From a bacterium (GTDB lineage: Bacteria > Patescibacteriota > Minisyncoccia > Phycocordibacterales > VMGT01): a stretch of DNA of 64,000 bases. Under the pieces are notes generated by a model. That model saw only the letters and a program-made list of their open reading frames with translations. It did not search any database and was not told the origin of the DNA. The position numbers and the translations under genes are program-made. Shown here piece after piece: positions 1 through 57,627 of this stretch. The stretch lies in contig JAUYPI010000003.1 in the NCBI GenBank assembly GCA_030697645.1, positions 318-64,317 on the forward strand, given 5' to 3'. Position 1 is the stretch's first letter. The number at the start of each line of letters is the position of its first letter.

Positions 1-585
1 GACTTGAAAATTCCGTATTTTACTTTTTGGGGGACTTCGCTGGATAATGTTACCAAAAGGCCGTCGTCGGAAGTTAAATTTCTGCTGAATCTTTTTGAAC
101 GGGATTTTAAAAAACTGATTAAAGATAAAAAAATTTATCAAAATGGCGTGAAGGTTAATGTTTTTGGCCGCTGGGAGAAACTATTTCCTGAAAAAACCAA
201 AAAGGCCATAAAAGAGGCAATTGAAAAAACTAAAAATCATAAAAACTGTCAACTGACTTTTTTACTGGCTTATAGCGGCGTTGACGAAATGGCAAGCGCA
301 ATCCAGAGGATTGCTAAAATAAAAAATCAAAATGCAAAAATCAAAATTGATGAGAAATTGATTAAAAACAATCTTTGGACAAAGGATTTACCGGCCGTTG
401 ATTTAATGATTCGCACCGGCGGTGAAAGGCAAGGGTGGTCGCATTTTTCCAGCGGTTTGATGATGTGGGACATGGCCGACGCGCAATTTTATTTCACCAA
501 AAATCTTTTTCCGGATTTCTCGGTGGCGGAATTTAAAAAAGTTATAGCGCAATACAGCCAAACCAAGAGGAAAATGGGAGCATAA
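1..585 (+). CDS. uppS: isoprenyl transferase / undecaprenyl-diphosphate synthase, 5'-truncated at window edge
   Basis: Frame is open from position 1. The C-terminal UPPS signatures LLAYSG, IRTGGExR and WQ..FYF are present. Very AT-rich coding. Confidence 0.7.
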   Translation, partial: DLKIPYFTFWGTSLDNVTKRPSSEVKFLLNLFERDFKKLIKDKKIYQNGVKVNVFGRWEKLFPEKTKKAIKEAIEKTKNHKNCQLTFLLAYSGVDEMASAIQRIAKIKNQNAKIKIDEKLIKNNLWTKDLPAVDLMIRTGGERQGWSHFSSGLMMWDMADAQFYFTKNLFPDFSVAEFKKVIAQYSQTKRKMGA

Positions 586-661
586 AGCAGAGAGTCAGTT
601 TGACAAACTTTCCCGATCCTCTATCATTTATTATTAGAAACCTTGAAAGGGGGTGGGGACA

Positions 662-889
662 ATGAGAAGGATTCTCATCAAGGTTTGGCAGGGGGAGTTA
701 AGTCCCAAACAAGCTCTGAAGGAGCTTGAAAAAATGGGATTTAAATTTGCTGCCGGTAAAGAAAAGAGGGGGCTGGAGGTACTTACCGCCTTAAAAAAAA
801 AGGAGGTCAATGTTAATGAAGCCGAAGAGGAGATTGCGCTTCTTGAATGTGTTGGGTGCCAGAGAGAAAAGGATCTCTGCCAAATCTAG
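662..889 (+). CDS. hypothetical small protein (75 aa)
   Basis: ATG preceded by a GAAAGGGGGTGG RBS. TTGACA-17-TATCAT promoter-like pair at ~604-632. No recognisable domain. Confidence 0.35.
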   Translation: MRRILIKVWQGELSPKQALKELEKMGFKFAAGKEKRGLEVLTALKKKEVNVNEAEEEIALLECVGCQREKDLCQI

Positions 890-963
890 AATCTCCCTCA
901 AAAAGCCCGCCGAAATCTTTTAAAAAAATAAAAGAAAGTAAGCGGGCTCACCTATTTAGGTAG

Positions 964-1037
964 GCCGCGGTAGCTTAATGGTAAAGCAGGTGCCTGAAGA
1001 GCATCTGAAGGCAGTTCGATTCTGCCCCGCGGCACCA
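964..1037 (+). tRNA. tRNA-Phe (anticodon GAA)
   Basis: Hand-folded cloverleaf: acceptor GCCGCGG/CCGCGGC, D-arm TAGC..GCTA-like, anticodon stem GGTGC/GCATC with loop CTGAAGA, T-arm GGCAG-TTCGATT-CTGCC, discriminator A and encoded CCA. Confidence 0.85.
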
Positions 1038-1179
1038 CAAACGAACTGAAAGGTTTTTTAGAAGCCCAAAGGTGGGACGCGCGAAGCGCGTCCCACTGAT
1101 TTCCCCCCATTTTTCCAAACGAATTCGGAGTCCCGCCTTCGGCGGGACGGACTGTTTTTTCGCCAAGAAGCAGGTTCGA
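1038..1179. repeat. inverted-repeat copy 1 (3' flank of tRNA-Phe). Contains two terminator-like hairpins, GGGACGCGCGAAGCGCGTCCC and GTCCCGCCTTCGGCGGGAC followed by T6.
   Basis: Reverse complement is 108/108 identical to 2758-2865 and ~75% identical over the remaining ~34 bp. Explains the duplicated peptides in minus-strand ORFs 952..1200 and 975..1166. Confidence 0.8.
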
Positions 1180-1262
1180 AATCAGAAGCAATTTTGACAT
1201 AGTATTTGCTTTGAATACAAAAAGAATTTTTGTCCTTTTTTCAAAAGTGGTATACTAACTTT

Positions 1263-1358
1263 GCGCACAATTATTATTAGTAAATCAGCAGAAATGGTTG
1301 TGCTAGAACAATTTTGATTTACGTTGAAATTGTGCGCCTAGTACAACCATTTCTGCTT
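1263..1358 (+). promoter_or_regulatory. interleaved inverted repeats immediately upstream of the recombinase start (candidate recombinase binding/crossover or regulatory site)
   Basis: GCGCACAATT (1263-1272) ... AATTGTGCGC (1331-1340). CAGAAATGGTTGTGCTAG (1290-1308) ... CTAGTACAACCATTTCTG (1341-1358). A TGGTATACT -10-like box sits at ~1247. Confidence 0.35.
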
Positions 1359-1368
1359 TTGTAAATAT

Positions 1369-3102
1369 ATGTCACAAAAATTCTTTTTGTATGCTCGCAA
1401 GAGTACCGATGTCGAGGACAAGCAAGTTTTGAGCATTGATGCGCAAATTACGGAATTGCGCGCTTTCGCCAAAAATGAAAAGTTAGAAATCGTTGAGGAG
1501 TTTGTAGAAAAGCGTACGGCGAAAATTCCAGGTCGTCCCATTTTTGGCGAAATGATGAGGCGAATAGAGAAAGGTGAAGTGTCTGGGATTATCAGTTGGC
1601 ATCCCGATCGTTTGGCGCGCAATTCTGTGGACGGCGGACAGATTGTGTACTTTCTCGACATCGGAAACCTTGCGAGCCTCAAATTCCCTAGCCATTGGTT
1701 TGAAAACACGCCACAGGGCAAATTCTCGCTGTCTATGGCATTCGTACAAAGCAAATACTATGTTGATTCTCTTTCCGAGAACACGAAGCGTGGACTTCGC
1801 CAAAAAGTGAGAATGGGGATATTCCCAAGCCAAGCGCCAGTGGGTTATCTGAACGACAGTAGAACAAAGACGATAGTGGTGGAAAAGAAAAAATCTCGTA
1901 TCGTGCGCTTGGCTTTTGAGAAATACACGAAAGGAAATATGAGACTGGAAGATGTTTCAAACTTTTTGGCGAAGAACGGAATCAGTACGCGTTCCGGAAA
2001 GAGAATCTCAAAAACTAGAGTGTCTTTCATTTTGTCCAATCCGTTCTATGTCGGACTGTTTAACTACGCAAAAGAATTGCACGAAGGAAAACACGAGCCA
2101 ATCATTTCAAAGAAACTTTTTGATGAAGCACAAGAAATTTTGAAATCTCGCGGACAACCAGAGCGTAAACCACAAAACGAACCTCAACCTTTTTGCGGAC
2201 TTATTTCTTGTGCTTCTTGTGGAATGATGATAACTGGCGAACACAAATTCAAACGGCAGAAAAATGGAAATGTCCACGAGTATATCTACTATCACTGCAC
2301 AAAAAAGCGAAAAGTTTTTAAGTGTCCCGAATCTGCCGTTAGAGAAAAAGAATTGGATCGCCAGTTATCATCCCTAATCAAAAAAGTTTCTTTGCCCAAA
2401 GACTGGGCGGAGGAATTATTGAAAATGGCGAACAATGACCACAAAAATTCCGCCCAGTCTTTGACTGCTTGTGTGAAAGAGAAAGAGGAAAAGATTTCTT
2501 CTTTGTCGAAAAGGTTAGAGCGACTTCTTTCGGGTTATCTCGACCAAGATATTGAAAAGGAAATTTATCGTGTTGAAAAAGGAAAATTGATTTTGCAAAA
2601 GAAGTCGCTCGAAGAAGAAATCACTAATCTTTCACACAAGCAGAATGATTGGCTCGAACCGTTTACCGAGTGGCTGAAAGACGCACAATCATTGGACAAA
2701 ATTGCTTCTGATGATGACCTTTTTGCGAAAAAGGTCAAAGCCAAAGAAATCTTTGGCTCGAACCTGCTTCTTGGCGAAAAAACAGTCCGTCCCGCCGAAG
2801 GCGGGACTCCGAATTCGTTTGGAAAAATGGGGGGAAATCAGTGGGACGCGCTTCGCGCGTCCCACTTTCTGGCTTCCAAAAAGCCGTTTAGTTCGTTTGT
2901 GGTGCCGGAGGTGGGACTCGAACCCACAAGCCTTTCAGCATGCGATTTTGAGTCGCACGTGTTTGCCAATTTCACCACTCCGGCGCGAGGTTTTTTGCGG
3001 GCAGATCTACCAATGCCGCCACCCCGGCGCTGTGCAATGTACGGATTAGTGGTTTCAGTATATATGCTCCGGTGTATTTTTCAAACTCTCTATTCAAAGT
3101 AA
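1369..3102 (+). CDS. large serine recombinase (resolvase catalytic domain + recombinase domain + zinc ribbon + coiled coil)
   Basis: N-terminal YARKSTD..Q catalytic-serine motif. Zinc ribbon CGLISCASCG...YYHCTKK..KC. ORF runs with no stop through the right inverted repeat and antisense across tRNA-Leu, so the last ~115 codons are probably read-through or a fusion. Confidence 0.8.
   Translation: MSQKFFLYARKSTDVEDKQVLSIDAQITELRAFAKNEKLEIVEEFVEKRTAKIPGRPIFGEMMRRIEKGEVSGIISWHPDRLARNSVDGGQIVYFLDIGNLASLKFPSHWFENTPQGKFSLSMAFVQSKYYVDSLSENTKRGLRQKVRMGIFPSQAPVGYLNDSRTKTIVVEKKKSRIVRLAFEKYTKGNMRLEDVSNFLAKNGISTRSGKRISKTRVSFILSNPFYVGLFNYAKELHEGKHEPIISKKLFDEAQEILKSRGQPERKPQNEPQPFCGLISCASCGMMITGEHKFKRQKNGNVHEYIYYHCTKKRKVFKCPESAVREKELDRQLSSLIKKVSLPKDWAEELLKMANNDHKNSAQSLTACVKEKEEKISSLSKRLERLLSGYLDQDIEKEIYRVEKGKLILQKKSLEEEITNLSHKQNDWLEPFTEWLKDAQSLDKIASDDDLFAKKVKAKEIFGSNLLLGEKTVRPAEGGTPNSFGKMGGNQWDALRASHFLASKKPFSSFVVPEVGLEPTSLSACDFESHVFANFTTPARGFLRADLPMPPPRRCAMYGLVVSVYMLRCIFQTLYSK
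2758..2899. repeat. inverted-repeat copy 2 (3' flank of tRNA-Leu), partner of 1038-1179
   Basis: Direct sequence comparison; 108-bp perfect identity. Confidence 0.8.
2900..2984 (-). tRNA. tRNA-Leu (anticodon CAA), class II with long variable arm
   Basis: Minus-strand fold: acceptor GCCGGAG/CTCCGGC, 3-bp D stem, anticodon stem TGCGA/TCGCA with loop CTCAAAA, long variable arm, T-arm GTGGG-TTCGAGT-CCCAC, CCA encoded. Confidence 0.8.
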
Positions 3103-3107
3103 AGAAG

Positions 3108-3139
3108 GCCCCCTGTCGCAGAGGTCTGCGACAGGGGGC
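3108..3139. terminator. bidirectional hairpin terminator between recombinase and convergent ALDH gene
   Basis: GCCCCCTGTCGCAGAGGTCTGCGACAGGGGGC, a perfect 13-bp stem. Confidence 0.5.
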
Positions 3140-3149
3140 GAAGCGTGGC

Positions 3150-4742
3150 TTATGTTTGGACCAAAGGTGCCGCAGTGCGAATCGGCGCTATCGTGTCGAA
3201 AATAATTTCACGATGGGCGGTCCATGTTTCTCGTATTGCCTCGGGCGTCCCAATACCGGCGGCGCATGGGCCGCACGGGCCGAACCAGTGGTTTTGTGGC
3301 GCGCCGGTGGTTTTGGCTCGTAGGCCGACGTAGGTTGTTCCATTCGTCGTGTGTCCGAGCATGGTGTTCAGAAACCCGTGCTCATTTGAAACAATCGCCG
3401 CAGCGAGGCGTGGCTTAATGTGCTCAATGATGCGGAGCAAAAGCTCGATATGCTGGTCGCCGTAGGTAGTGATGATCTGTAAGGGCCCAAACAACTCTTT
3501 GGTAACCAGATCAAAATACTTGGGCAGCTCTAAGCGGCGAAACGGGACAAAGATCGCCGTCGGTTCGAACGCGCCATACGTATTCGGTATGGTGTGGTTT
3601 TTGAGCCGTTTGCCACCCCAGAGAATGTATGTGCCGCTTAATTTGAGGATTGCGGCGATGTGCGCCTCCACGTACTCGTTTGTCACTGAGAGCAGCGGGC
3701 CATTGGTGAGGTCGGAGAGCGTCCGTGTGCTCGCACGGATTTGCAGTGCGTCATAGAGCCGGTATGCCTTCTCGTGGACAAAGAGCAACGATTGCGCAGA
3801 GCATTTTTGCCCTGCCGCCGCGTATGCATCCTGATCACACTGCCAGGCGACGTATTCGAGCATGTCATCGCTCACATCGCGTCCTATGACTTTCGGGTTG
3901 AAGCCGGAGTCCTCGAGCTTCACTCTGCCTCGAAGCTTTCGCATGAGAGCCGCGCCGACCGCGGATGAACCAGTGAACTGGCACAGAGCAATGTGTTGCT
4001 CTGCGGCGTCAATAAACGCAGCCATATGCTCGCCGCTGCAATGGATGAGATCGACGTCGTGTGCGGACAAGCCACAGGCGAGCAAAAGCCGAATGAATTG
4101 TTCCGCAACGATTGAGACCTTCAGATCCGCCTTCAGGAGCGGTCGGTTTCCAGCGAGGAGCGCTCCGACGACTTGAAGTGCGGGGATCTCGAGCGGGAAG
4201 TTAAACGGCGTGATAATGACAACCGGACCAAGCGGCCAGCGGTACCCATTACTCTCCTGCCCCGCGTGATTGCCGGGAGTGGAAAATCCTCGGCCGAAAT
4301 GAAAACGAGGATTATCGCCGGCAAAATTGTAGAGAAAGTCTCTCGTTACCTCTACTTCCCCCATGCACTGCGGGAGTGATTTTGGCATGACACGCTGTAT
4401 GAGCCGCGTGAAGAAATATGCAATGTCGGGATCGGCAAGCGCTCTCGCCGCTCTACTGCATACGAGCCCGAGCCCGCGGTAGCGTTCCACGTTGCGAAAC
4501 GGATTGTGAAGACCGTAAGACGGACAGGACCGAAGGCCTTCTATAAAACTTTCGAACTTCACCGGAGGCGTGTCGGGGATGCTGATCATGCCTGCTCCGG
4601 TGAGCGGGTCCGGCATGAGGTGCGTGAGTGAATTTTCAACGAACCAGAACTTTCCTTCTGAGAGGTTCATGGCGAATGCGGTGCACCCTGTCGCTTTGTG
4701 CCGCATCGTATCCGGATCAAGTGTTGCAAACGATAGATCCAT
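3150..4742 (-). CDS. aldehyde dehydrogenase family protein (P5C-dehydrogenase-like)
   Basis: ALDH motifs: glycine-rich FTGSSAVG and catalytic-Cys context GQKCSAQS. 530 aa. ATG start. Confidence 0.75.
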   Translation of the reverse strand: MDLSFATLDPDTMRHKATGCTAFAMNLSEGKFWFVENSLTHLMPDPLTGAGMISIPDTPPVKFESFIEGLRSCPSYGLHNPFRNVERYRGLGLVCSRAARALADPDIAYFFTRLIQRVMPKSLPQCMGEVEVTRDFLYNFAGDNPRFHFGRGFSTPGNHAGQESNGYRWPLGPVVIITPFNFPLEIPALQVVGALLAGNRPLLKADLKVSIVAEQFIRLLLACGLSAHDVDLIHCSGEHMAAFIDAAEQHIALCQFTGSSAVGAALMRKLRGRVKLEDSGFNPKVIGRDVSDDMLEYVAWQCDQDAYAAAGQKCSAQSLLFVHEKAYRLYDALQIRASTRTLSDLTNGPLLSVTNEYVEAHIAAILKLSGTYILWGGKRLKNHTIPNTYGAFEPTAIFVPFRRLELPKYFDLVTKELFGPLQIITTYGDQHIELLLRIIEHIKPRLAAAIVSNEHGFLNTMLGHTTNGTTYVGLRAKTTGAPQNHWFGPCGPCAAGIGTPEAIRETWTAHREIIFDTIAPIRTAAPLVQT

Positions 4743-4918
4743 CTTTCTTCCTCCTCATATCTTACGAATGTGCGTGTTTTGCCGAGGCCGTCGGGCGGGG
4801 CGGTGTCGCTGTAGCTATATGAGCATAAAATCCCCTTGTGCGCAATAGACTTCTTCGGAAACTCCTTACATCGTATAAACGTGGTATAATGTAGACATGC
4901 CGCAAAACGAGTCTCGAT

Positions 4919-6121
4919 GTGCGAAGTCGTTTATCAGTCATCAGTCTAGCAAAAGTTTTTTCAAAGAATAAAAATATGAACTCGAAAGGCGCAATCACTA
5001 CCGTCGTAGTTGTTGGGGTCGTGCTGCTTGTCGGAGTGGCGGGCTTCCTTGCGTTGAGAGAACGGGCGTTGTCGCCCGTGCCAGCCCCTTCACCGACTCC
5101 AATGCCTACTCCAATCCCGACACCAACCCCTGCTCCGACACCTACTCCCATACCAACCCCAAAGCCTTCCCCATTACCTAAACTGGCGGCGTTTGAAGAC
5201 CAGATCACCCTCACGGTTGGCGAGAGAGTAAAATTTAGCGATGGCTTGGTCGTGACGCTTCTCGAAATAAACGATTCGCGTTGCCCAGCACCACCAGTAG
5301 TTTGCGTATGGGAGGGCGAACTGGCGCCGGTGTTGCGCGTCACGGGCGGCACTATAGGTAAGGAGGTCAAGGAAGTCCGCCTCGGAACCGTGCGCGCAAA
5401 GAGTGTCATTGAAAACGGCTATGGATTTGTATTGGATGGTGCAACCATGACGATGGCAACGGTCGCAGTAACAAGGAAAGAAGGAGACGTATCTTTGCAA
5501 GAAGGAGAGCGGGAGGGTCCGTTTTTACTCGAAAAAATTTATCCTGACCACGTCACCGGCCTCAATTTTCTGGAGTATCCTGTAGCGACCAACGTCGGGC
5601 ACCCTCTCGCTCTGCGGGTCGGCGAGAGCGCGAGTAACGGCTGCACCGTAACGCTCACCCTCACTCGCATAGAAGGCGAGACTGCCACGTTCAGCAAGGA
5701 AACGGATTTTGACCGGCCGTGCCCGATATGCCTTGCCGGCGCTACGCTGCTTGATACGCCATCGGGATCAGTGACAGTGAAAGATGTACACGTCGGCATG
5801 CCGATATGGACGACTGATATGAATGGCCATCGCGTCCCCGGAGTCGTGATCAAGACTTCGAAAACGCCGGTGCCGCTCACACACCTGATGACCCATTTAG
5901 TTTTGAGTGACGGGCGAGAACTCTTTGTCTCCTCCGGACATCCGACTACTGACGGGCGCGTCGTCGGCGACCTCAAGGCCGGCGATGTGTATGATAGTGG
6001 CGTCGTAGCGAGCGCTGAGCTCGCTCAGTACGGCGAGAGCGCAACGTATGACATCCTCCCCTCTGGAGAAACAGGCTTCTACTGGGCGAGCGGCATTCTC
6101 CTCGATAGTACGCTGTATTAA
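4919..6121 (+). CDS. membrane-anchored secreted protein with Pro/Thr-rich linker and C-terminal Hint (bacterial intein-like) domain
   Basis: N-terminal TM helix, (PTPxP)n linker. C-terminal block begins C-LAGATLLDT (intein block A) and LTHLMTHL (TxxH block B). Alternative start ATG at 4976 (MNSKG...). Confidence 0.6.
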   Translation: MRSRLSVISLAKVFSKNKNMNSKGAITTVVVVGVVLLVGVAGFLALRERALSPVPAPSPTPMPTPIPTPTPAPTPTPIPTPKPSPLPKLAAFEDQITLTVGERVKFSDGLVVTLLEINDSRCPAPPVVCVWEGELAPVLRVTGGTIGKEVKEVRLGTVRAKSVIENGYGFVLDGATMTMATVAVTRKEGDVSLQEGEREGPFLLEKIYPDHVTGLNFLEYPVATNVGHPLALRVGESASNGCTVTLTLTRIEGETATFSKETDFDRPCPICLAGATLLDTPSGSVTVKDVHVGMPIWTTDMNGHRVPGVVIKTSKTPVPLTHLMTHLVLSDGRELFVSSGHPTTDGRVVGDLKAGDVYDSGVVASAELAQYGESATYDILPSGETGFYWASGILLDSTLY

Positions 6122-6129: not shown

Positions 6130-6400
6130 CTTCGTACTGTGAATTACGAAATTGTAAGACATTCGGGTCCCCCGTTCCAGTCTGAATTTCGAAATTCCAA
6201 AAAACCCGTCTCCAAACAAATCTCAATACTTAAAATCCAATCTCCAAACACGACGTGCGTGTTTGGAGATTTGATGCATTGGAATTTGAAATTTGGTTGG
6301 AGCTTGTTGGTTGGAGCTTGGAATTTATTTGTTTCGGATTTTGTGTATCGAATGTTTACGTCGGCAATTTCGTTATTCACAGTAGGGTAGATTAGAGCGG
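6130..6400. repeat. palindromic element, family B (CCAAA/TTTGG-type arms, core CAAACACGACGTGCGTGTTTGG) flanked by GTGAATTACGAAATTG / CAATTTCGTTATTCAC inverted repeats
   Basis: Related copies at 26130-26290, 29600-29784, 35222-35350 and 57940-58100. Confidence 0.7.
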
Positions 6401-8399: not shown

Positions 8400-8545
8400 A
8401 GTTTTGGTTTTTATAAGCAATGACATTATAACAATTTTCAAATTTTCAATTTTCAATCAATTTTCAATTACTCAATTTTCAAACACGACGTCGCCGCAAC
8501 TCAGTCATTGAAACATTGAAAATTTATTGAAAATTGATCCTTGAA
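8400..8545. repeat. palindromic element, family A (tandem CAATTTTCAA / TTGAAAATT arms, core CAAACACGACGTCG)
   Basis: Related copies at 23135, 23958, 24737, 25638, 27735, 38376, 42747 and 51462. Confidence 0.75.
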
Positions 8546-8614
8546 AATTGAAAATTCGCATGAGTAAGAATCTCCGTTCTCTGAGACTGCTAGAGGCGGT
8601 TCGACCGAGAGCGC

Positions 8615-10411
8615 CTACTGTGCTTTGTTGAAGAACGGCCACACTTTTTCGCGTTCAACATACCAGTCTTTAACCTTGAGAAAGCGCTCGGAGGCCACTG
8701 TCATGACCCCGAGCTCGAGTCCGCCGAGCCGCTCGGGGACGACATAGATGAACTCGGGCGCATAGAGAAAAATGGCGGGCAGATCTTCTTCGACCTCGCG
8801 CTCGAGAGCGCGATAACGCTTGATCCGTTCCGTGTTCGCGGAGACCGTGCGCGCTTCCTCGAGCAGTTTGTCTGCCGTGAGGTTCGTGTACAGAGCGACA
8901 TTGAGTCCGGGGTCCGCGCGCTGCGATGAGTGCCAGAAGGGGTAGAGGTCAAGGTCGCGGCCGATGACCTCGCCGAAGAGAAGCGCGTCATACTCTCGCG
9001 GACGGATGACGTCGTGCTGGAGCGCGCTCATGTCAAAGACGGCGAGCGTGACGCTGATCCCGAGCCGCTCCCATACTTCTTTGATATAGAGTGCGGCGGC
9101 TTTGAGCTCTGCGCTGTCCGCGGTTGCGAGCGTAAAAGCAAGCGTTTTCGTTTCTTTGCCGATGCGTTTTTCGAGTGCGTTAGTTTGGGTGTTTTGTTTC
9201 CAGCCGGCGCGCTCAAGTATTTCTCGCGCCTCGGCGAGGTGCTCGTCCGGCGCTCGGCGCGCCATACGCTCACTCCGGTCCGCGCCACGCTCTCCATCAC
9301 TCGCGCTCCGGTGCGGCTCTACCTCGTCCGCAAGACTCGCGAGTAGCCCGGGCGGGATCGGACCCTCTGCCGGAGAGCCGTAGCCGCGGAGCACACGCTC
9401 GATGAGTGCCGTCTTGTCAATGGCTGCCGCAAGCGCGCGGCGTACCGCCGCCTCCGAGAACACCGGAGAGCGGTTTTGGTTGAGGAAGACGGCAAAGAGG
9501 CGCGGGAGCGTCGAGAGCTCAATGCGAACCCCTGAGGCGGCGAGCCGCTCGGCATAGAACGGCGGCACACTCGTGAGCGTGTCAACATCGCCCGCAGTGT
9601 AGGCATCGAGCAGCGCGGCTTCATTGGGGTAAAAAAGGAACTTGATAGTTTCAAGGTACGGCGTGCCGAGCGCATAGTCCTCGAAGCCCTCGAGCGTGTA
9701 GCTTTTTGGGACGCCGTTTCGATCGCGGTCAATGCGGCGCAGCCGAAACGGCCCCGCGCCGACCGGCTCGCTCATGAGGGTACTGAAGAGAAACGTGTCC
9801 GGGTCGAACTCTCTCCAGAGGCGCGCGGGGAGAATCCCAAGCGTGAGTGCTTCCGGAAACGGCGCATAGGGTTTCGCGAGCGTAAACCGAACATGTCGCT
9901 CATCGAGCGCTTCAACCTGGACACCCTCCCAACTCCCCCGCTTCGGGCTCTTCAGCCGGCTGTCTTGCGCCGCAGCGACGGTGAAGACCACATCCTCGGC
10001 GCGCACGCTCGATCCGTCGTGGAATCGGGCGTCTTCGCGGATCGTAACGGTGTAGGAGAGGTTGTCGTTTGAAATCTCATACGACTCGGCGAGCTCTGGG
10101 GCGAGCGAGCCGTCCGGAAGGGGCTTCAGCAGGCCCGCGTAGAGGAGCGCCGTGAGGTCGCGCTCCGGCTCTGAGAGCGCAAAGAGTGGATTGATGAAGC
10201 GCGGCGTGCCGATGAGGCCTTCCCGGAGCGTGCCGCCCCGAGCGGGTATCTCCTCGAGAAGTACCTCATTCAGCCGGCCGAGCGCGAGGAGCGACGTGCC
10301 GGCGAGGAGGAGCGCGAACACCCAAAAACAGACTCGCTCCAGGGGCGAGAAATTCTTGCGAAGCCGCTCGAGATAGGCAAGCGGCGCTATGGAGAAAGTG
10401 CCGGTTCGCAC
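8615..10411 (-). CDS. ABC transporter substrate-binding protein, family 5 (peptide/nickel type)
   Basis: Signal anchor plus SBP_bac_5-like architecture. GTG start. Confidence 0.7.
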   Translation of the reverse strand: MRTGTFSIAPLAYLERLRKNFSPLERVCFWVFALLLAGTSLLALGRLNEVLLEEIPARGGTLREGLIGTPRFINPLFALSEPERDLTALLYAGLLKPLPDGSLAPELAESYEISNDNLSYTVTIREDARFHDGSSVRAEDVVFTVAAAQDSRLKSPKRGSWEGVQVEALDERHVRFTLAKPYAPFPEALTLGILPARLWREFDPDTFLFSTLMSEPVGAGPFRLRRIDRDRNGVPKSYTLEGFEDYALGTPYLETIKFLFYPNEAALLDAYTAGDVDTLTSVPPFYAERLAASGVRIELSTLPRLFAVFLNQNRSPVFSEAAVRRALAAAIDKTALIERVLRGYGSPAEGPIPPGLLASLADEVEPHRSASDGERGADRSERMARRAPDEHLAEAREILERAGWKQNTQTNALEKRIGKETKTLAFTLATADSAELKAAALYIKEVWERLGISVTLAVFDMSALQHDVIRPREYDALLFGEVIGRDLDLYPFWHSSQRADPGLNVALYTNLTADKLLEEARTVSANTERIKRYRALEREVEEDLPAIFLYAPEFIYVVPERLGGLELGVMTVASERFLKVKDWYVEREKVWPFFNKAQ

Positions 10412-10431
10412 AAAGTGATAGTGTCAGGGCG

Positions 10432-10632
10432 CGGGCAACGCTCTATGGTAACCACTCGCATCTTTTATTTTTGTGCTCGTGCTTCGGTGTTTGGAAATGG
10501 TGTCGCCTCGTTTACGAAAAACACAGAACTCGGCCTCCCTTTGGTCGGCCTCAGACAGCTGTGTTTTTCTACTCGGCTCGCCATTTCCTAAACACCTCTC
10601 GCAATGCACAAAAATAAAAGGCGCGAGTGGTT
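10432..10632. repeat. ~190-bp imperfect palindrome between secG stop and the SBP gene start
   Basis: Arms TAACCACTCGC(A/G)(T/C)CTTTTATTTTTGTGC...AACACAG mirror each other across a centre at ~10535. Confidence 0.5.
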
Positions 10633-15308: not shown

Positions 15309-16850
15309 TTAGGTTGTAGATTTTAGCTTCGGAACGCGTAAATAAAATATCGACCCTTTGCCGGGCTCCGATTCAAGGAGAATTTTCGCCCCGATTTTCT
15401 CCGCGAGCATTGAGGCGACATATAGGCCCAACCCAGTGCCATCGGGCTTGAATTTTTTGGCATTGGACGCGCGGTAAAATTTTTCAAAGATGCGCCCCTG
15501 CTCGTCGTTGGGTATCCCGATGCCGCTGTCTTTCACGGAAAATACCACACTCCCTGTTTCTTCGGTGACGTCAAAAAATATATCCTGCCCCCGCTCGGAA
15601 TAATTGATTGCGTTTACGATAAACGTCTCAAGAATGGAGCGCAGCATCTCCGCGTCAGTCTCGACAACGGTCGTGGCGAGATTTTTCACGTCCGCGTGAA
15701 GCCGCACCCCTCTCTGCTCGGCGACAGGCGCCGTCGCGAGAGAAACGTCTCGAGCGAGGCGCGCAAGGGAAATCGCTTCTGTTTTCATCGCGACGTCGCC
15801 GCCCTCGATACGTAAGGCGTTCAGCATGTCAAAGACGATTTTGAGCGCGCGCTCGTTCAATTGGTAGATTTGATCAAGATATTCTTGCTGTTTTTGATTT
15901 ACAGTACCGAGTATCTTTCGATCGAGCGTTTCAACGAACCACTTGATGCCGGAGAGCGGCGTTCGCAGTTGGTGCGAGGCAAGAGCAAGAAATTCAGTTT
16001 TCATGCGATCAATTTCCTTTTCTTTGGTAATATCGCGAAATACTTCAACGGCGCCTATAATTTTTCCGTCTAAAGTGACGGGGGTGACAATACCCGACGC
16101 AGGAAACCTGGTTTTATCTTTGCGAATATAATACCAACTACTACTACTACTACTAGTAGTAGTAGTTCCCACCAATGCCTGCGTTATTGCTCTTTCTTGA
16201 GGCGGCACCAAATTCCCGGCTTCATCTTCTTGTGGCACTACTTCAACCATTCGTTTCCCCGCGATTTCCTTTTCACCCCAGCCGGTGAGCGCTTCAAAAG
16301 CTTTACTGATGAAAAGAATATTTCCTTCCTTATCGACTGCCACAAGTCCCTCGCCGATGCCTGACAAAATTGCCTCATCTTTGGCTTTGGTATTATCCAG
16401 CGCTTCTTTTTCAACTTGAAGGTCTTCGAAGACGTTTTTGGCGGCCGTCCTTGCATTTTCCAAATCCTCCTCTATCTGCTTTCGGTCAGTGATATTTTGC
16501 AACACTGCCACAAAAAATCCTTTTTGGGGACTATACGCCGAAACCAAAAACCACATCGATAACGGTTTAACGTATATTTCGAACCTCTTTGATTTTCCAG
16601 TTAAATAAAGCCGGCCGTAAATCTCAAACAATTCAGGATTAGACGCGCGAATTCCCGGAATTATCTCTGATATTTTCTTTCCTGTAACATTTTTCAATCC
16701 CGTCAGATTTTCATAATTTTTATTAACCCTTAAATGGATCCAATCTATCAGGTTTCCTTGCATATCAAAAATCATTTGGCAGTAAGCCAAACCGTCAAGC
16801 ATATTATCAAAAAGCGACTCATAAAAGACGCTGGGATCTTCGGGTTTCAT
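15309..16850 (-). CDS. PAS-domain sensor histidine kinase
   Basis: HisKA H-box (ASHQLRTPL) and HATPase G-boxes (GTGLGLYV). Lower GC. Contains the (CTA)5(GTA)4 triplet palindrome at 16136-16165. Confidence 0.85.
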   Translation of the reverse strand: MKPEDPSVFYESLFDNMLDGLAYCQMIFDMQGNLIDWIHLRVNKNYENLTGLKNVTGKKISEIIPGIRASNPELFEIYGRLYLTGKSKRFEIYVKPLSMWFLVSAYSPQKGFFVAVLQNITDRKQIEEDLENARTAAKNVFEDLQVEKEALDNTKAKDEAILSGIGEGLVAVDKEGNILFISKAFEALTGWGEKEIAGKRMVEVVPQEDEAGNLVPPQERAITQALVGTTTTSSSSSSWYYIRKDKTRFPASGIVTPVTLDGKIIGAVEVFRDITKEKEIDRMKTEFLALASHQLRTPLSGIKWFVETLDRKILGTVNQKQQEYLDQIYQLNERALKIVFDMLNALRIEGGDVAMKTEAISLARLARDVSLATAPVAEQRGVRLHADVKNLATTVVETDAEMLRSILETFIVNAINYSERGQDIFFDVTEETGSVVFSVKDSGIGIPNDEQGRIFEKFYRASNAKKFKPDGTGLGLYVASMLAEKIGAKILLESEPGKGSIFYLRVPKLKSTT

Positions 16851-16921
16851 TTTTTGTCGGCCATTTTTATGATTACCATTGTGATTTTTCCGGTTCCATT
16901 CTTGCCGTTGCCGTTTTTAAC

Positions 16922-17485
16922 TCACTGCCGCTTCAGAATTTCAATTTCTTTTTTAAGCTCCGCCATTTTCAATTCTCTACCAACCATACTTTTATTTGTC
17001 TTCTCTAATTCTTTAATTTTATCAGTAAGTTCTTCTGTTTGTTCTGCCACTTTTTTCTCCAGTTCATTTGTATAATCGTCTAATTTTATTTCAAGCTCCT
17101 TTCTGACAGTTATGTCTTCAATGGCTAATATGATCAATTGCACCGAATCTATCTGCATGGCGTTGAGCAGCATTATTTTTTGCCCGATTGTTTCAAACTC
17201 ATGCCTAACCTCATAATCTTTTACAACTTTTTTATTAGGCAAAATGTCTTCCAGCAATTTTTTCAATTTAGGAATATTCCATTGGCCATTTCCTAATCCA
17301 TAAAGAGATTTGGCCTCTGTTTGTTTTTGCGAGACCTGAAAGGTTTGGTAAAAAACTGGGTTTGCCGAAATCACCACAAGATTAGAGTCAAGAATTAAGA
17401 ATGCCTCTCTGGAAACATCTACCAGTGTTTTCATGTAATGCAAGGCAAGTTCTTTGTTGTCTAATATATTTTTATTATTTTCCAT
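16922..17485 (-). CDS. PAS domain plus coiled-coil protein (possibly the detached N-terminal part of the downstream kinase)
   Basis: PAS fold followed by a heptad-rich C-terminus. The ORF track starts at TTG 17503; ATG at 17485 is preferred. Confidence 0.55.
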   Translation of the reverse strand: MENNKNILDNKELALHYMKTLVDVSREAFLILDSNLVVISANPVFYQTFQVSQKQTEAKSLYGLGNGQWNIPKLKKLLEDILPNKKVVKDYEVRHEFETIGQKIMLLNAMQIDSVQLIILAIEDITVRKELEIKLDDYTNELEKKVAEQTEELTDKIKELEKTNKSMVGRELKMAELKKEIEILKRQ

Positions 17486-17761
17486 ATTTTTAGTTTTAAT
17501 CAAACAATTCCTCGCAGCTCTGCTGCGAGGTCGTACAGAACTCGAACGAAGTCACAGCCAGAAAAAAATTATGAGCGAAGCTCCTTTAGATACCTCGGAG
17601 CAGAGCTCCGAGGTAGTTCATTTTACTTTTTAGCTAAGTTTATTTCGACCTTTATGCCCCCGTTAGAAGTACCGGCTTTCTATTTTCCAATAGGGCGATA
17701 AAACAAAAACACGCGGCCAAAAAGCAGCATGTAAAAACTTTCCTCTAAACGGAGGATCAGA

Positions 17762-17786
17762 GAGAGAGAGAGAGAGAGAGAGACGA
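17762..17786. repeat. (GA)12 dinucleotide microsatellite
   Basis: Seen directly. Confidence 0.9.
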
Positions 17787-18045
17787 AACCCGTGCCAAAT
17801 TTTGATATCCAGTGAGCATAAGTTTATGATACCATCAACTTGAAATGTTACCCACATCATTGTGGATAAAATCTTTATTCCCCGTGTTATACGGCGGGTC
17901 AATGTAGATGACATCCATCTTGCCTTTGTGGGTATAGTTGAGCACCGAGAGGGCGTGGTAATTCAGTTATACCGTCGCAGCGTGCTGCACGGTTCGTGAT
18001 TGTTACCGTATATTTCACGAAGAAGATAAAAGAAGGTGAAATCGT

Positions 18046-23134: not shown

Positions 23135-23265
23135 AGAGTCGAATTTTCAATGTACAATTTTCAATTTTCAATCAATTTTGCAATGACTCAATTTTCAAAC
23201 ACGTCGACGTTTATCCGTCGCTCGTCGTCGAAACATTGAAAATTGATAATTGAAAATTTCAACGT
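23135..23265. repeat. palindromic element, family A
   Basis: Ends 1 bp before the rpsC ATG. Confidence 0.75.
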
Positions 23266-23928
23266 ATGTCTCACACCGTCCACCCCTACGCCCACCGCCT
23301 CGGCATCATTCGCGACTGGAAGTCGCGCTGGTGGGCGTTGGGTGAACAATACAAAACGCGTCTCCGGGGCGACGTGTTGCTTCGCGAGTATCTTGAGAAG
23401 CGCCTGCGCGGGCTCTATGTGAGTACGATTGAGATGGAGCGCGGCGCGCACATGCTCCGCATCATCGTGAAAACGACGCGCCCGGGGCTCCTCATCGGCC
23501 GCAGTGGCGAGGGCGCGACGCGCCTTCGCGGCGACATCGTGAATTTCCTCAAGAAGCGCCGCGGTCTCCTTGAGAGCGCGGGAGACATCAAACTCGACAT
23601 TGAGGAGGTGCGCTCGCCGGAGTCGAACGCGAAAATCGTCGGCTACATGGTTGTGGACGGCCTCGAGAAGCGCATGCCGTTTCGCCGTGTGCTCAAACAA
23701 ATCGTGGAGAAAGTGATGGCGAATCGGGATGTACTTGGCGTGCGCATAAAGCTCTCCGGCAGGCTCGGGGGTGCCGATATGGCACGGCAGGAGGACGTGC
23801 GTAAGGGTAGGATTCCGCTTCAGACGTTTCGCTCAGACATAGATTTCGCTCGGCTTCGAGCTACGATTCCGCAGGGCGATATCGGTGTGAAGGTGTGGAT
23901 CTATAAAGGAGAGGTGTTTCAGAAGTAA
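23266..23928 (+). CDS. rpsC: 30S ribosomal protein S3
   Basis: KH plus S3-C domains. Confidence 0.9.
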   Translation: MSHTVHPYAHRLGIIRDWKSRWWALGEQYKTRLRGDVLLREYLEKRLRGLYVSTIEMERGAHMLRIIVKTTRPGLLIGRSGEGATRLRGDIVNFLKKRRGLLESAGDIKLDIEEVRSPESNAKIVGYMVVDGLEKRMPFRRVLKQIVEKVMANRDVLGVRIKLSGRLGGADMARQEDVRKGRIPLQTFRSDIDFARLRATIPQGDIGVKVWIYKGEVFQK

Positions 23929-23957
23929 AGTAAAGGACGTGAAGATGGTGATGAAAG

Positions 23958-24096
23958 AATTTTCAATTTACAATTTTCAATTTTCAATCAATTTTGCAAT
24001 GAATCAATTTTCAAACACGACGTCGTTCGTCATTGAGTCATTGAAACATTGAAAATTTATTGAAAATTGAAAATTGGGACTTGAAAATTTTCGACT
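23958..24096. repeat. palindromic element, family A
   Basis: Abuts the rplP ATG. Confidence 0.75.
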
Positions 24097-24513
24097 ATGT
24101 TGTTTCCCAAAAAAGTAAAACATCGTAAGTGGCAGAAACACCGGCGTAATCTCTCGAAGGTTGGCGTCGCCTCGCGTGGCACGACGGTCGCATTCGGGTC
24201 GTGGGGCTTGCGCGCGACGAGTTACGGCAGGATCCGTTCGACGCAAATCGAGGCGGCGCGTCGCGTGCTCTCGCGGGGCGTTGCGAAGTCCGGCCGGGTG
24301 TGGATCCGGATATTTCCGGACCGTCCGTATACTGCGAAGCCCCCGGAAGTAGGCATGGGCAAGGGAAAGGGCGACCCGCAGGGCTTTGAAGTCGAGGTGC
24401 TGCCCGGACGGATACTCTTTGAGATAGATGGCCTTGCGCGCGAGGCGGCGCTTGATACGCTTCGTAAGGCCGCGAGCAAGATGCCAGTGAAGACACGGGC
24501 AGTGAGTGCGTAG
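24097..24513 (+). CDS. rplP: 50S ribosomal protein L16
   Basis: Sequence similarity. Confidence 0.9.
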   Translation: MLFPKKVKHRKWQKHRRNLSKVGVASRGTTVAFGSWGLRATSYGRIRSTQIEAARRVLSRGVAKSGRVWIRIFPDRPYTAKPPEVGMGKGKGDPQGFEVEVLPGRILFEIDGLAREAALDTLRKAASKMPVKTRAVSA

Positions 24514-24524
24514 TCCTTTACTTT

Positions 24525-24734
24525 ATGAAAAAAGCGACGTATAAAGATATATCCGATGTCGATCTCGCCAAGGCTCTTCGCGAGAAACGCGAGACGCTTC
24601 GCGCATTTCGTTTTGCCTCCTCGGGTGCCAAGGTGAAGAATGTGCACGAGGGACGGAATGTGAGGAGAGATGTGGCGAGGATATTGACGGAGTTGGAGCG
24701 CCGTTCCACTAGTGGGGTGCGTGGGGCAGCGTAA
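24525..24734 (+). CDS. rpmC: 50S ribosomal protein L29
   Basis: Sequence similarity and position. Confidence 0.85.
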   Translation: MKKATYKDISDVDLAKALREKRETLRAFRFASSGAKVKNVHEGRNVRRDVARILTELERRSTSGVRGAA

Positions 24735-24736
24735 TT

Positions 24737-24890
24737 TCCAATTTTCAATTTTACAATTTTCAATCAATTTTGCAATTACTCAATTTTCAAACACGACATC
24801 GTTCGTCATTGACTCATTGGAGCATTGAAAATTTATTGAAAATTGGAAATTGGAAATTGAAAATTTTTAGCGGCGATTACTTTTAGAGAT
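24737..24890. repeat. palindromic element, family A
   Basis: Lies between rpmC and rpsQ. Confidence 0.75.
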
Positions 24891-25148
24891 ATGGTAACTT
24901 CTAATATAAAGTCCCATGTTAGAGGCGGCAGGGTGCTACGCGGTACCGTTGTCTCCGACAAAATGCGCGACACCGTCGCGGTTGTGGTGACGCGCTACGT
25001 GAAGCACCCGCGCGTCGGCAAGTATGTGCGCTGTCGGAAAAAGTATCTCGCGCATGATGCAGGCAACACGCATCACACGGGAGATACTGTCACCATACGG
25101 GAGACCAGGCCCCTGTCTAAACGAAAATCTTTTATCGTTGCCCCGTAG
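24891..25148 (+). CDS. rpsQ: 30S ribosomal protein S17
   Basis: Sequence similarity. Confidence 0.9.
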   Translation: MVTSNIKSHVRGGRVLRGTVVSDKMRDTVAVVVTRYVKHPRVGKYVRCRKKYLAHDAGNTHHTGDTVTIRETRPLSKRKSFIVAP

Positions 25149-25149
25149 G

Positions 25150-25262
25150 GACTCGTAATCAGTAACTCGTAACTAGCAGCCGGCAATTTGGCGTGACTGT
25201 AACAATAGCAAGAGGCGATGTCGCCCCTAGTTACCAGTTACTAGTTACGAGTCCCCACTTAC
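25150..25262. repeat. palindromic element, family D
   Basis: Abuts the rplN ATG. Confidence 0.7.
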
Positions 25263-25634
25263 ATGATCCAGCCCCAAACCATCGTCACTATAGCGGACAA
25301 TTCCGGCGGCAAGATCGGACGCATCTTCAAGGTGCCCGGCGGATCGCGCCGCAGGTACGCGCGTCTCGGGGACGTGGTCATTCTCTCGGTGCAGGTCGCG
25401 GAGCCGCGAAAGACTGTGAAGAAGAAAGACATCTGCCACGCGGTCGTCGTGCGGCAGCGGCAGCCCTTTCGCCGGAAGGATGGTTCGTACGTGCGTTTTG
25501 ATGACAACGCCGTGGTGCTCATTGAGAAGGGCAAGCTCGAGCCGCGCGCGAATCGCATCTTCGGCCCGATGCCGCGGGAGCTTGCGGAGAGGGGATACCA
25601 GAAAATAATATCTCTTGCCCCCGAGGTGGTATAG
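25263..25634 (+). CDS. rplN: 50S ribosomal protein L14
   Basis: Sequence similarity. Confidence 0.9.
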   Translation: MIQPQTIVTIADNSGGKIGRIFKVPGGSRRRYARLGDVVILSVQVAEPRKTVKKKDICHAVVVRQRQPFRRKDGSYVRFDDNAVVLIEKGKLEPRANRIFGPMPRELAERGYQKIISLAPEVV

Positions 25635-25637
25635 TTT

Positions 25638-25791
25638 GGGAATTTTCAATTTACAATTTTCAATCAATTTTGCAATGGCTCAATTTTCAAACACGACATA
25701 GTCCGTCATTGAGTCATTGGAGCATTGAAAATTATTTGAAAATTGCAAAATTGAAAATTGAAAATTTTTAGCGGCGTGGGAACCCATCGTC
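25638..25791. repeat. palindromic element, family A
   Basis: Abuts the rplX ATG. Confidence 0.75.
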
Positions 25792-26129: not shown

Positions 26130-26290
26130 AAAAAAAAACAGTAAAAAATTTCAAGCTCCAACCAACAAGCTCCAAACAAATTTCAAATTCCAATGCATCA
26201 AATCTCAAACACGCACGTCGTGTTTGGAAATTGGATTTTGAATATTGAGATTTGTTTGGAGACGGGTTTTTTTGGAATTTGGAAATTAGT
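26130..26290. repeat. palindromic element, family B
   Basis: Produces the spurious MHQISNTHVVFGNWIL peptide in ORF 26193..26384. Confidence 0.7.
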
Positions 26291-27734: not shown

Positions 27735-27871
27735 GAAGCTAAAATTTTCAATTTTCAATGTTTCAATGACGCAATGACGAGTGGCGGACGAATGTCGACG
27801 TGTTTGAAAATTGATTCATTGCAAAATTGATTGAAAATTGGAAATTGTAAATTGAAAATTCAGACTATACT
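27735..27871. repeat. palindromic element, family A (opposite orientation)
   Basis: Ends TATACT ATG, so the rplF mRNA is possibly leaderless. Confidence 0.75.
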
Positions 27872-29601: not shown

Positions 29602-29784
29602 AGCGAATTGGGAACCCACAAGCTCCAAACCAAATAAATTCCAAGCTCCAACCAACAAGTTCCAAACAAACTTCAAATTCCAATGCATCAAATCTCAAAC
29701 ACGCACGTCGTGTTTGGAAATTGGATTTTGAGCATTGAGATTTGTTTGGAGACGGGTTTTTTGGAAATTGGAAATTCGTATCGT
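29600..29784. repeat. palindromic element, family B
   Basis: Explains the spurious N-terminus of ORF 29683..30240. Confidence 0.7.
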
Positions 29785-38375: not shown

Positions 38376-38530
38376 CGGAATTTCCAATTTCCAATTTTAC
38401 AATTTCCAAATAATTTCCAATGACCAAATTTCCAATTTCCAAACACGACGCCGGATGTCGCTCGTCGTTTGAAAATTGACTCATTGAAAATTTATTGAAA
38501 ATTGAAAATTGATAATTGAAAATTCCGTGT
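38376..38530. repeat. palindromic element, family A/B hybrid (CCAATTTCC arms, core CAAACACGACGCCGGATGTCGCTCGTCGTTTG) in the 23S-5S spacer
   Basis: Seen directly. Confidence 0.7.
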
Positions 38531-42675: not shown

Positions 42676-42746
42676 GCCGTATGAAGCGCTCAAAAATACC
42701 AGATTGAGTAGGACGTTCGCGCCTTGTTGGAAACCCCCGGATACAA

Positions 42747-42880
42747 ATTTCCAATTATCAATTTTCAATTTTCAGTCAATTTTGCAATGAATCAATTTTC
42801 AAACACGACGTCGTTCGTCATTGAGCCATTGAAACATTGAAAATTTACTGAAAATTGAAAATTGTAAATTGAAAATTATG
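42747..42880. repeat. palindromic element, family A
   Basis: Seen directly. Confidence 0.75.
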
Positions 42881-51461: not shown

Positions 51462-51607
51462 TAATTTTCAATTTTTAATTTTTAATTTTCAATCAATTTT
51501 GCAATTTCTCAATTTTCAAACACGACGTCGTCCGTCATTGGTCATTGGACCCTCCAGCTGGCGGATTGAAAATTTATTAAAAATTGAGCATTGAAAATTG
51601 AAAATTT
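51462..51607. repeat. palindromic element, family A
   Basis: Abuts the GTG start of the PAP2 gene. Confidence 0.75.
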
Positions 51608-55437: not shown

Positions 55438-55611
55438 GACCTCTTGCATAACCCGCTCCTGCTGCGATTTTTGATTTTTTGCTGCGACTTCGTCAGACTT
55501 CGCAAAATGGTTCTCGCCGTACAACAAGTACGCCGTCGAACCATTTTGCTTGTCTTCCTCGTCTCGCTCAAAAATCAAAAATCTCGCCACGAAACGGGTT
55601 ATGCAAGAGGT
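55438..55611. repeat. 174-bp palindrome whose ends are GACCTCTTGCATAACCCG...GATTTTTGATT. The same 38-bp end is repeated, inverted, at 57628-57667.
   Basis: Direct comparison. Internal palindrome CGCAAAATGGTTC...GAACCATTTTGC. Confidence 0.7.
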
Positions 55612-55712
55612 CTATACTATGCGGGGGACATCGGAGTCTCGGATCTCGTAATTCACAGACCGTTTTCAATGTGATGGATTTAATTTTGCGTATTTTGTGC
55701 TATTGTACAAAT

Positions 55713-57626: not shown

Positions 57627-57627
57627 A

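Follow-up and report, generated by a model that had tools for sequence, protein, structure and literature searches.

Inverted repeats around a large serine recombinase gene at tRNA 3' ends: a candidate mobile element of Patescibacteria and a probable assembly join

The window analysed here is a stretch of 64,000 nucleotides (nt) from a Patescibacteriota bacterium (assembly GCA_030697645.1, contig JAUYPI010000003.1, positions 318 to 64,317), and near its beginning a gene for a large serine recombinase (LSR) lies between two long inverted repeats, here called arms, each of which abuts the 3' end of a different tRNA gene (Table 1). An inverted-repeat search gave the arms as 1014-1179 / 2758-2923 (166 nt, 92% complementary, spacing 1578 nt), the single outstanding inverted repeat of the first 6 kb and of the whole window. 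The part of the repeat that lies inside the tRNAs is the usual likeness of T-arm and acceptor sequences together with the common CACCA. A preliminary description, made from the letters of this DNA, had stated that the 142 bp after tRNA-Phe recur in inverted form after tRNA-Leu and that the inner 108 bp are 100% identical. Repeat search and alignment confirm both statements, 1072-1179 being the reverse complement of 2758-2865 at all 108 nt. The 34 nt next to the tRNAs do diverge as it had said, but with 7 mismatches the identity is 79% and not about 75%. It was also right that both repeats contain terminator-like hairpins, each with a T-run (1130-1148 on the plus and 2807-2789 on the minus strand), that no other credible gene lies between the arms, and that the reading frame stays open through the right repeat and across tRNA-Leu in antisense, the first stop being at 3102. 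The arm hairpin sequences have no third copy in the 64-kb window (shuffled sequences give an expectation of 0 matches), and an Rfam search of positions 1-6000 (E <= 1) found the two tRNAs only, with no RNA family matching the arm or the leader. GC content steps at tRNA-Leu from 40-44% (1-3000) to 53-57% (3001 onwards), and the high-GC genome begins there.

Table 1. Coordinates of the features at the recombinase locus and of one repeat family elsewhere in the window
Feature	Position	Strand	Size	Remarks
tRNA-Phe(GAA)	964-1037	+		ARAGORN; Rfam tRNA 68 bits; 3' end ...GGCACCA, left arm abuts directly
Left arm (B)	1038-1179	+	142 nt	outer 34 nt (1038-1071) and inner 108 nt (1072-1179); ends TTTTTTCGCCAAGAAGCAGGTTCGA, family-invariant
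Hairpin 1 of arm	1072-1096	+		GTGGGACGCGC-GAA-GCGCGTCCCAC; covariation across 17 arm variants
Hairpin 2 and T-run	1130-1160	+		intrinsic-terminator-like, faces transcription leaving tRNA-Phe; hairpin proper 1130-1148
Complementary segments inside the left arm	1181-1233	+		1181-1196:2697-2712; 1197-1213:1747-1763; 1215-1233:1374-1392 (codons 2-8)
Putative extended -10-like promoter	1248-1256	+		TGgTATACT, for the LSR gene; read from the sequence
Long leader hairpin	1287-1357	+		ends 12 nt before ATG; conserved in relatives
LSR open reading frame	1369-3102	+	577 aa as assembled	Pfam Resolvase, Recombinase, Zn_ribbon_recom
Right arm (B')	2758-2899	-	142 nt	inverted copy of the left arm
Mirror of hairpin 2 and T-run	2807-2777	-		faces tRNA-Leu; terminator-like hairpin 2807-2789
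tRNA-Leu(CAA)	2900-2984	-		ARAGORN and Rfam; 3' end ...GGCACCA, right arm abuts directly
tRNA-Leu upstream region	2985-3149	-		promoter-like site 3084-3057; terminator of the aldehyde dehydrogenase gene 3139-3108
AT-rich intergenic repeat family	8432-8556, 23142-25765, 27787-27867, 38392-38524, 42746-42877, 51463-51606

By its domains the protein is a large serine recombinase, and it lies outside every curated family. PF00239 matches residues 6-150 (E = 3.5e-20), with the motif YARKSTDVED and with S12 invariant in 19 aligned homologues, in which the cysteines C276, C281, C284, C310 and C319 are invariant as well. PF07508 at residues 174-261 and PF13408 at 274-334 are both above their cut-offs. 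The nearest solved structures are SprA and the A118 integrase (E about 1e-9 to 1e-7), and residues 51-427 align with residues 65-461 of SPbeta SprA, spanning the region of the coiled-coil insertion in the zinc ribbon. The protein matches the integrase family PHROG 95; the PHROG 'DNA invertase' covers its first 261 residues only and scores far under the integrase-family match. It stays under every NCBIfam cut-off, CcrB and XisF being far below theirs and the IS607 model reaching 25 bits against a cut-off of 110, on the catalytic domain only. Identity to annotated phage and plasmid integrases is below 30% throughout, and no relative was found in the viral contigs searched. As assembled, the protein consists of the domains and a putative coiled-coil region to about residue 463, of a part encoded by the right arm (464-510) and of read-through of the antisense strand of tRNA-Leu and its promoter region (511-577).

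The gene belongs to a widespread unit. The top 120 homologues of a protein search are 70-94% identical and span several candidate classes, every named one coming from Patescibacteria, and their alignment also covers the residues that the right arm encodes. A GTDB scan with one genome per species gave 158 loci, 80 of which were kept for analysis (L-numbered below); they include Nomura-, Taylor-, Adler-, Yanofsky-, Moran- and Lloydbacteria and Paceibacteria. Together these searches place the unit, in the order arm, leader, LSR gene, inverted arm, in about 80 Patescibacteria genomes at species level and in over 100 metagenome proteins. In nearly all loci one arm lies about 190 nt upstream of the gene and the inverted one overlaps the 3' end of the gene, with about 1570 nt between them. 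The same arm was recovered in about 70 related loci, and no solitary arm was found in about 0.9 Mb of the flanks of related loci. Many homologues are on contigs of about 2 kb, and many contigs of 1.7-2.7 kb hold the arm-LSR-arm unit alone. A few element contigs are in bins labelled Gammaproteobacteria, Planctomycetales or archaeon (L006, L009, L022, L031, L050 and L080), probably as a result of binning errors.

The targets of the unit are varied in identity and constant in geometry. Among 52 arm-adjacent tRNAs the distance from the inner arm border to the tRNA 3' end is exactly 142, 154 or 166 nt, and the tRNAs concerned are Leu (5 anticodons), Arg, Gly, Val, Ile, Glu, Lys, Met and Phe. A tmRNA takes this place in L054 (1813-2193) and L057 (11504-11881), and in the latter the acceptor end beside the arm looks shortened. 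The arm-adjacent tRNA-Ile of L060 (about 1750-1830) is without the 3' strand of the acceptor stem and was not called by ARAGORN; it could represent an imprecise event or a decayed copy. The GC content of the LSR gene is 0.37-0.46 (mostly about 0.40) and that of the host flanks 0.32-0.57. Because the gene keeps a steady composition in hosts of varied GC and is found at many tRNA targets, the unit is read, from these comparisons, as a mobile element that moves horizontally among Patescibacteria. Several genomes have two copies (L032/L041, L055/L070 and L015/L047). Beyond the distal arm and its 40-mer (see below), L116 has at 10065-10474 an inverted mid-gene piece of a second LSR, 85% identical, which indicates that copies can be nested or truncated.

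The arm has a conserved structure. Five of the nine pairs of hairpin 1 show compensatory double changes across 17 arm variants and none is broken, a small hairpin ahead of it also co-varies, and a GC-rich hairpin with a T-run closes the arm in all 17. The last 25 nt, TTTTTTCGCCAAGAAGCAGGTTCGA, are invariant across seven aligned arms. Judged from the alignments, homogenisation of the two arms of one element is real in this family, since their identity has a median of 98% within an element (27 loci) against a median of 66% between elements.

The leader between the left arm and the LSR gene is conserved too. Three abutting segments at 1181-1233 are perfectly complementary to pieces of the LSR gene, and corresponding segments are conserved in other loci, where they co-vary with each element's own gene. 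In the L085 subfamily 63 nt of the gene's 3' end are retained in inverted form, and the left arm with its segments looks like a remnant, kept over time, of an inverted copy of the gene end. Folding of the RNA 1180-1400 gives a helix of 19 bp between 1215-1233 and 1374-1392 (z = -6.6), which would hide the start region of the gene in transcripts entering from outside. The putative promoter at 1248-1256 was not called by a consensus promoter scan and has no good -35, and the pattern TGnTA(T/C)A(C/A)T occurs at the equivalent place in long-leader relatives. In the leader hairpin 1287-1357, 17 of the 30 pairs are compensated among eight relatives, with G-U pairs on the sense strand. The subfamily of L042, L058 and L085 has a leader of 83-130 nt, no 5' hairpin and the protein start MENKKFFLYA, with a tRNA upstream in all three.

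In most loci only one arm adjoins a tRNA, and the upstream arm is preceded by a promoter-like 40-mer, TTTTGAAAATAGGTTCTAACTTGGTACAATAGAGACAC. This 40-mer is the end (...GGTACAATAGAGACAC) of a conserved module of 210-275 nt, designated A, which, in contigs that reach far enough, has an inverted partner (A') of 209-275 nt, 97-100% identical, at a distance of 1.7-5.2 kb (232 nt in L065). The A repeat abuts B in L013, L014, L026, L030 and L067. A complete copy thus has, in the orientation of the gene, the layout host | A' - variable segment (0.2-5 kb) - A·B - leader - LSR - B' | tRNA, in which the segment between the A copies is variable in content and host-like in GC; in the smallest copies, such as L065 with its 232 nt between the A copies, there is no evident gene for a directionality factor. 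The possibility that the 40-mer is a general host promoter was rejected, as it occurs almost only beside the arm or as the inverted partner, with two weak matches upstream of tRNA genes. About 300 nt past module A, in the Paceibacterota genome of L001, there is a LOOT RNA (52-173 on the minus strand; RF03000, 81 bits).

The borders of this composite follow the tRNA end closely. The arm begins with CA directly after the ...CAC of the tRNA or tmRNA and thereby completes the CCA end. With the arm at its fixed distance, 46 of the 52 element-adjacent tRNAs end in CACCA, while 72 of the 118 non-adjacent tRNAs of the same loci have no encoded CCA, many of them ending ...CAC|AAA. Toward the element module A continues as ...CAC|CA+B, and toward the host as ...CAC|AAA or AAC. 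Both outer borders show CAC in the five loci in which A abuts B, although it is only 3 nt long and the position of the far border depends on the model. What comes past A' is rich in A or consists of a terminator (L026) or the beginning of a gene (miaA, L067), and this region looks, to judge by its sequence, like the native downstream sequence of a tRNA. The motif GTTC is found 22 nt from the border in the arms at tRNAs (52/58) and 26 nt from it in the arms at A (25/28). Large serine integrases distinguish phage and bacterial half-sites by a shift of about half a turn, as known from work on the A118 integrase, and the offset of 22 versus 26 nt might, by analogy, be a lead to such a discrimination.

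The explanation that fits these data best, and which we consider moderately probable, is that the family is a mobile element whose LSR acts at tRNA ends and that the box in the window was joined from two copies belonging to two genomes. The A|B junction would be an attP-like attachment site, which the LSR would cross with CAC at the ends of tRNA genes. The composite would then lie, bounded by CAC, between a tRNA end and the former downstream sequence of that tRNA. Since joining the ends of the composite would recreate A|B, and A|B is also present intact and inverted inside it, A|B is proposed as an attachment site that the element carries twice, as an inverted duplicate. Integration would split one copy and leave the other intact, and use of either copy, or flipping between the arms, would place the LSR segment in either orientation. 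The arm would then terminate the tRNA transcript, the outward-facing 40-mer could drive the downstream sequence, and the leader fold would block translation of transcripts that read in.

Two isomers are predicted by this model, and both occur. About 75% of the 120 closest homologues run into the antisense strand of a tRNA, which gives tails of the type ...VPxxG(L/F)EP... from the T-arm and acceptor end, and about 20% run into A', where they end at a conserved ...LLYQVRTYFQN(K/R) at about 525 aa. In all 52 loci the tail encoded by the arm has an open frame, with variation by codon position of 0.29/0.28/0.43, highest at the third. From the open tail and the third-position bias, the natural stop of the LSR seems to lie in A', in which case integration through that copy would swap the last residues. 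Plain non-coding read-through was considered as an account of the tail; the open frame with its third-position bias speaks against it, and the change of tail residues with the hairpin variants of the arm speaks for it.

Inversion of the LSR segment within the family is further supported, though not proven, by two loci from sister samples. L116 and L003 have 6,249 nt of host flank in common, including a tRNA-Leu(TAG) and the arm, at 100% identity, and their inner 1.57 kb is also 100% identical but in the opposite orientation, the differences being restricted to the outermost 74 nt of the arms. The sequence of L115 would fit a circle but does not close.

At the window itself the box with two tRNAs is likely to be an assembly chimera, in which the assembler switched, inside the common 108 nt, from a copy at the tRNA-Phe of a low-GC organism to a copy at the tRNA-Leu of an organism with 55% GC. 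The LSR gene running into B' and facing tRNA-Leu would be the common integrated junction, and tRNA-Phe followed by B would be the junction of another copy. The left side of the window has a tRNA where module A is expected. Its flank has 39.5% GC against 55% in the right flank, the GC3 of uppS is 0.40 compared with 0.65 ± 0.085 (minimum 0.45) for 29 other window genes, and the nearest UppS relatives sit in genomes of 38% GC. Over its whole length the right arm agrees with the variant found in the closest relatives (2 mismatches to L115, the LSR of which is 94% identical). Within the left arm only the outermost 39 nt, with 7 differences, depart from the variant common to the right arm, L115 and L035. 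The opposite assignment, with the right arm as the mosaic and its outer 96 nt of the L085 type, was rejected because L115 and L035 show the right arm to be a natural whole variant and the left to be the odd one. The tRNA-Leu and flank of the window are 100% identical in L085 and L086. L085, which was reached via the aldehyde dehydrogenase gene, is identical through the dehydrogenase, the tRNA-Leu and 96 nt of the arm and then continues with a different LSR gene pointing away from the tRNA; a third contig ends 25 nt into the arm. The metagenome-assembled source contig (73,640 nt) carries both UppS and the aldehyde dehydrogenase and may fuse two organisms. When the flanking genes were used as queries, no relative with this tRNA context came up, the relatives of UppS and of the dehydrogenase differing in gene order and having no tRNA there. 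The 22 loci that a metagenome scan returned for the 3' half of tRNA-Phe all belong to unrelated organisms without the element. Exact-protein look-ups returned no record for the small open reading frame at 653-889, the LSR of the window or the 99%-identical UppS.

Several observations weigh against this explanation and the attachment-site model that belongs to it. The GC argument is drawn from 960 nt of left flank, and GC is low in a further island of the window, at 16-18 kb. L085 may be a mis-joined contig itself. The distal flanks of L116 and L003 differ, so that these are not clean two-state isomers, the samples are different, and assembly through the repeat of 147 nt could mimic their inversion. 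The attachment site is deduced from junction sequences, the core common to the borders is just 3 nt (CAC), and the variable segment could be host DNA and not cargo, given its host-like GC and, in some loci, genes of housekeeping type such as NadD (L067) and TrpRS pieces (L030). L002 and L008 are also flanked by tRNAs on both sides, with about 39% GC in both flanks of L002, and real recombinants with two tRNAs may exist. The layout of the window would be of this kind if inverted copies at tRNA-Phe and tRNA-Leu of one chromosome had recombined, either homologously in the arm or gene or by action of the LSR on a retained junction and a second tRNA end, and had inverted the DNA between them. Apart from L002 and L008, such a history would agree with L019, where the arrangement is the reciprocal one and module A lies on either side, with the existence of the two-copy genomes, and with the persistence of an intact attachment-like junction after integration, from which secondary events with other tRNA ends might be expected. 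We nevertheless regard it as unlikely for the window, where the flanks are 16 GC points apart, uppS falls outside the GC3 range of the 29 other genes, L085 continues the identical tRNA-Leu flank differently, and the left arm is a mosaic although a junction made by the LSR would carry the whole arm of one element.

An even simpler unit, consisting of arm, LSR gene and arm only, would be an IS-like transposon of about 1.9 kb with terminal inverted repeats of 142 nt, the LSR as transposase and palindromic CAC|GTG targets where a tRNA end faces another tRNA end or module A; A and the segment would then form a separate element. The many contigs of 1.7-2.7 kb that hold just this unit could be taken in this way, the flanking CAC/GTG lengthens the inverted repeat, and the flank pairs A/tRNA, tRNA/tRNA and A/A all occur. 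Short contigs are expected in any case, however, as assemblies break at repeats, module A is almost confined to the place next to arm B or to that of the inverted partner of such a copy and is therefore not independent, and a tRNA end would have to adjoin module A or another tRNA before each insertion. Serine recombinases, moreover, excise between direct sites, and inverted ends give inversion only, and a unit of this kind seems quite improbable to us. That there is no mobility at all, the arms being two copies of a tRNA terminator that gene conversion keeps similar, with a resident LSR gene between convergent tRNAs, is very improbable. It would account for the terminator-like hairpins in both arms and for their homogenisation within a locus, but arms without an LSR gene were absent after tRNAs in the roughly 0.9 Mb and elsewhere in the window, and the unit is found at tmRNA and at more than nine different tRNAs, its gene having about 40% GC while its hosts range over 32-57%. 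The interpretation offered in the preliminary description as three readings is partly supported. An invertible module is supported for the family, by the two orientations in L116 and L003 and by the other junction in about 20% of homologues, and not for the window. The end of an integrative element at a tRNA, with a read-through recombinase, fits the tRNA-Leu side (46/52 CACCA junctions, read-through in about 75% of homologues). Gene conversion agrees with the homogenisation in the family (98% against 66%), whereas the 108 nt of the window, with its atypical layout, left flank of foreign composition and mosaic left arm, are unusable as evidence for it. If the join lies inside common sequence, the perfect identity would be the overlap itself and no sign of recent exchange, so that the recent or ongoing exchange deduced earlier from this identity would not follow.

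We tentatively put forward, as a possibility short of a probable one, that these loci represent an undescribed class of small integrative elements of Patescibacteria. Their LSR would recognise the generic 3' end of tRNAs (the T-arm and the acceptor end, CAC being the core), with tmRNA and no fewer than nine tRNA identities in use, and the elements would carry the junction as an inverted duplicate with flip-flop isomers. By supplying the CCA, a terminator and an outward promoter they would insert harmlessly, and they would be a source of chromosomal inversions between tRNA genes, of assembly breaks and of chimeras. No description of this element was found in the literature searched, and it is apparently undescribed so far. 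Patescibacteria have tiny genomes in which few mobile elements have been described, and with 70-94% protein identity, and about 40% GC in hosts of 32-57% GC, this LSR family is among the most conserved sequences across their classes. An LSR that uses the common end of many tRNAs, and its own site twice in inverted form, would extend the known range of these enzymes; because LSRs serve as tools for genome engineering, a new target logic is also of practical interest. Most of the related contigs end at the repeats of the element, which can fuse contigs of different organisms, as it probably did here, and the quality of metagenome-assembled genomes in this group is affected.

Other features of the window lie apart from the recombinase locus. 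The low-GC island (16000-18000, 39-41%) has open reading frames of the PAS/histidine-kinase type at 15309-16850 and 16922-17503, both on the minus strand, and may be acquired. The AT-rich intergenic repeats listed in Table 1, CAATTTTCAATTTTCAATCAATTTTGCAATG...TTCAAACACGACG followed by ATTGAAAATTTATTGAAAATTG, are present in 7-11 copies in both orientations and in the high-GC part only. A palindromic AT core, ATATCGATATTTCGAAATTTCGATAT, enclosed by inverted GC-rich sequences (CCGTGC...GCACGG, GCGGAC...GTCCGC), recurs about 19 times between 30705 and 38242 at a spacing of 0.3-3.7 kb. A perfect inverted repeat of 42 nt (55573-55614 / 57624-57665) surrounds an open reading frame of 715 aa (55479-57626) that looks like an FtsH-type AAA protease, and three distant intergenic regions (6184-6345 versus 26143-26289 and 29617-29777) have inverted repeats of 82-84 nt with 88-94% identity.

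Among known systems, the invertase switches Hin/hix, Gin/gix and Cin/cix are similar in having a serine recombinase in or beside a segment with inverted repeats. The segment here is found in both orientations in two loci from different samples, with different distal flanks. The enzymes of the switches are, however, small serine recombinases with a C-terminal helix-turn-helix that act on sites of 26-34 bp with an enhancer, while the protein found here has the domain order of an LSR and arms of 142 nt. What inversion changes here is the end of the LSR, in its last residues, and the outside promoter that reads toward it; no expressed gene is obviously affected. In the yeast 2-micron plasmid (FLP/FRT) two inverted repeats separate unique segments in flip-flop isomers, and the presumed free form of the Patescibacteria element would resemble it, with two inverted A·B repeats (about 350-550 nt) that part the LSR segment from another unique segment. 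The FLP enzyme belongs to the tyrosine recombinases and serves to amplify the copy number of a replicating plasmid, whereas this element is found integrated and neither a replication gene nor a circular form was seen in it. The likeness to the invertase switches and to the 2-micron plasmid is in layout only.

Serine recombinases also move the small elements Tn4451 (by TnpX), Tn5397 (by TndX) and those of the IS607 family. Both TnpX and TndX are LSRs, and they act through a circular intermediate. Elements of the Tn4451/Tn5397 type have GA-dinucleotide ends and no long inverted repeats, while the targets here are tRNA 3' ends. IS10 and IS50 are alike in another respect, as in these elements fold-back of transcripts entering from outside hides the start of the transposase, and here sequence near the end is complementary to the start of the coding region (helix 1215-1233:1374-1392); the enzyme class is different, and the fold-back is supported here by folding and conservation. 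IS607-family elements have no terminal inverted repeats at all (PMC6188088). The family has an N-terminal DNA-binding domain, whereas in the protein of the window the catalytic domain begins at residue 6 and the gene is flanked by long arms.

The closest comparison is with the integrative elements and phages that carry an LSR (phiC31, Bxb1, A118 and SPbeta SprA, SCCmec with CcrAB, and the LSR subset of the tycheposons). They have the same set of Resolvase, Recombinase and zinc-ribbon domains, and they are alike in integrating beside a host gene and would be alike in having a very short common core. The Patescibacteria element differs in the long inverted repeats around the LSR gene, and the earlier statement that LSRs normally act with no long repeats does not apply to this family, in which arms flank the gene. 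It also differs in the use of many tRNA identities in place of one site, in a border that follows the discriminator and is not within the tRNA, and in what would be an inverted duplicate of the junction. Tycheposons of Prochlorococcus adjoin tRNA or tmRNA genes, and 27 of 937 carry an LSR (doi 10.1101/2020.12.28.424599). This minority of the tycheposons is the precedent for LSRs beside tRNAs.

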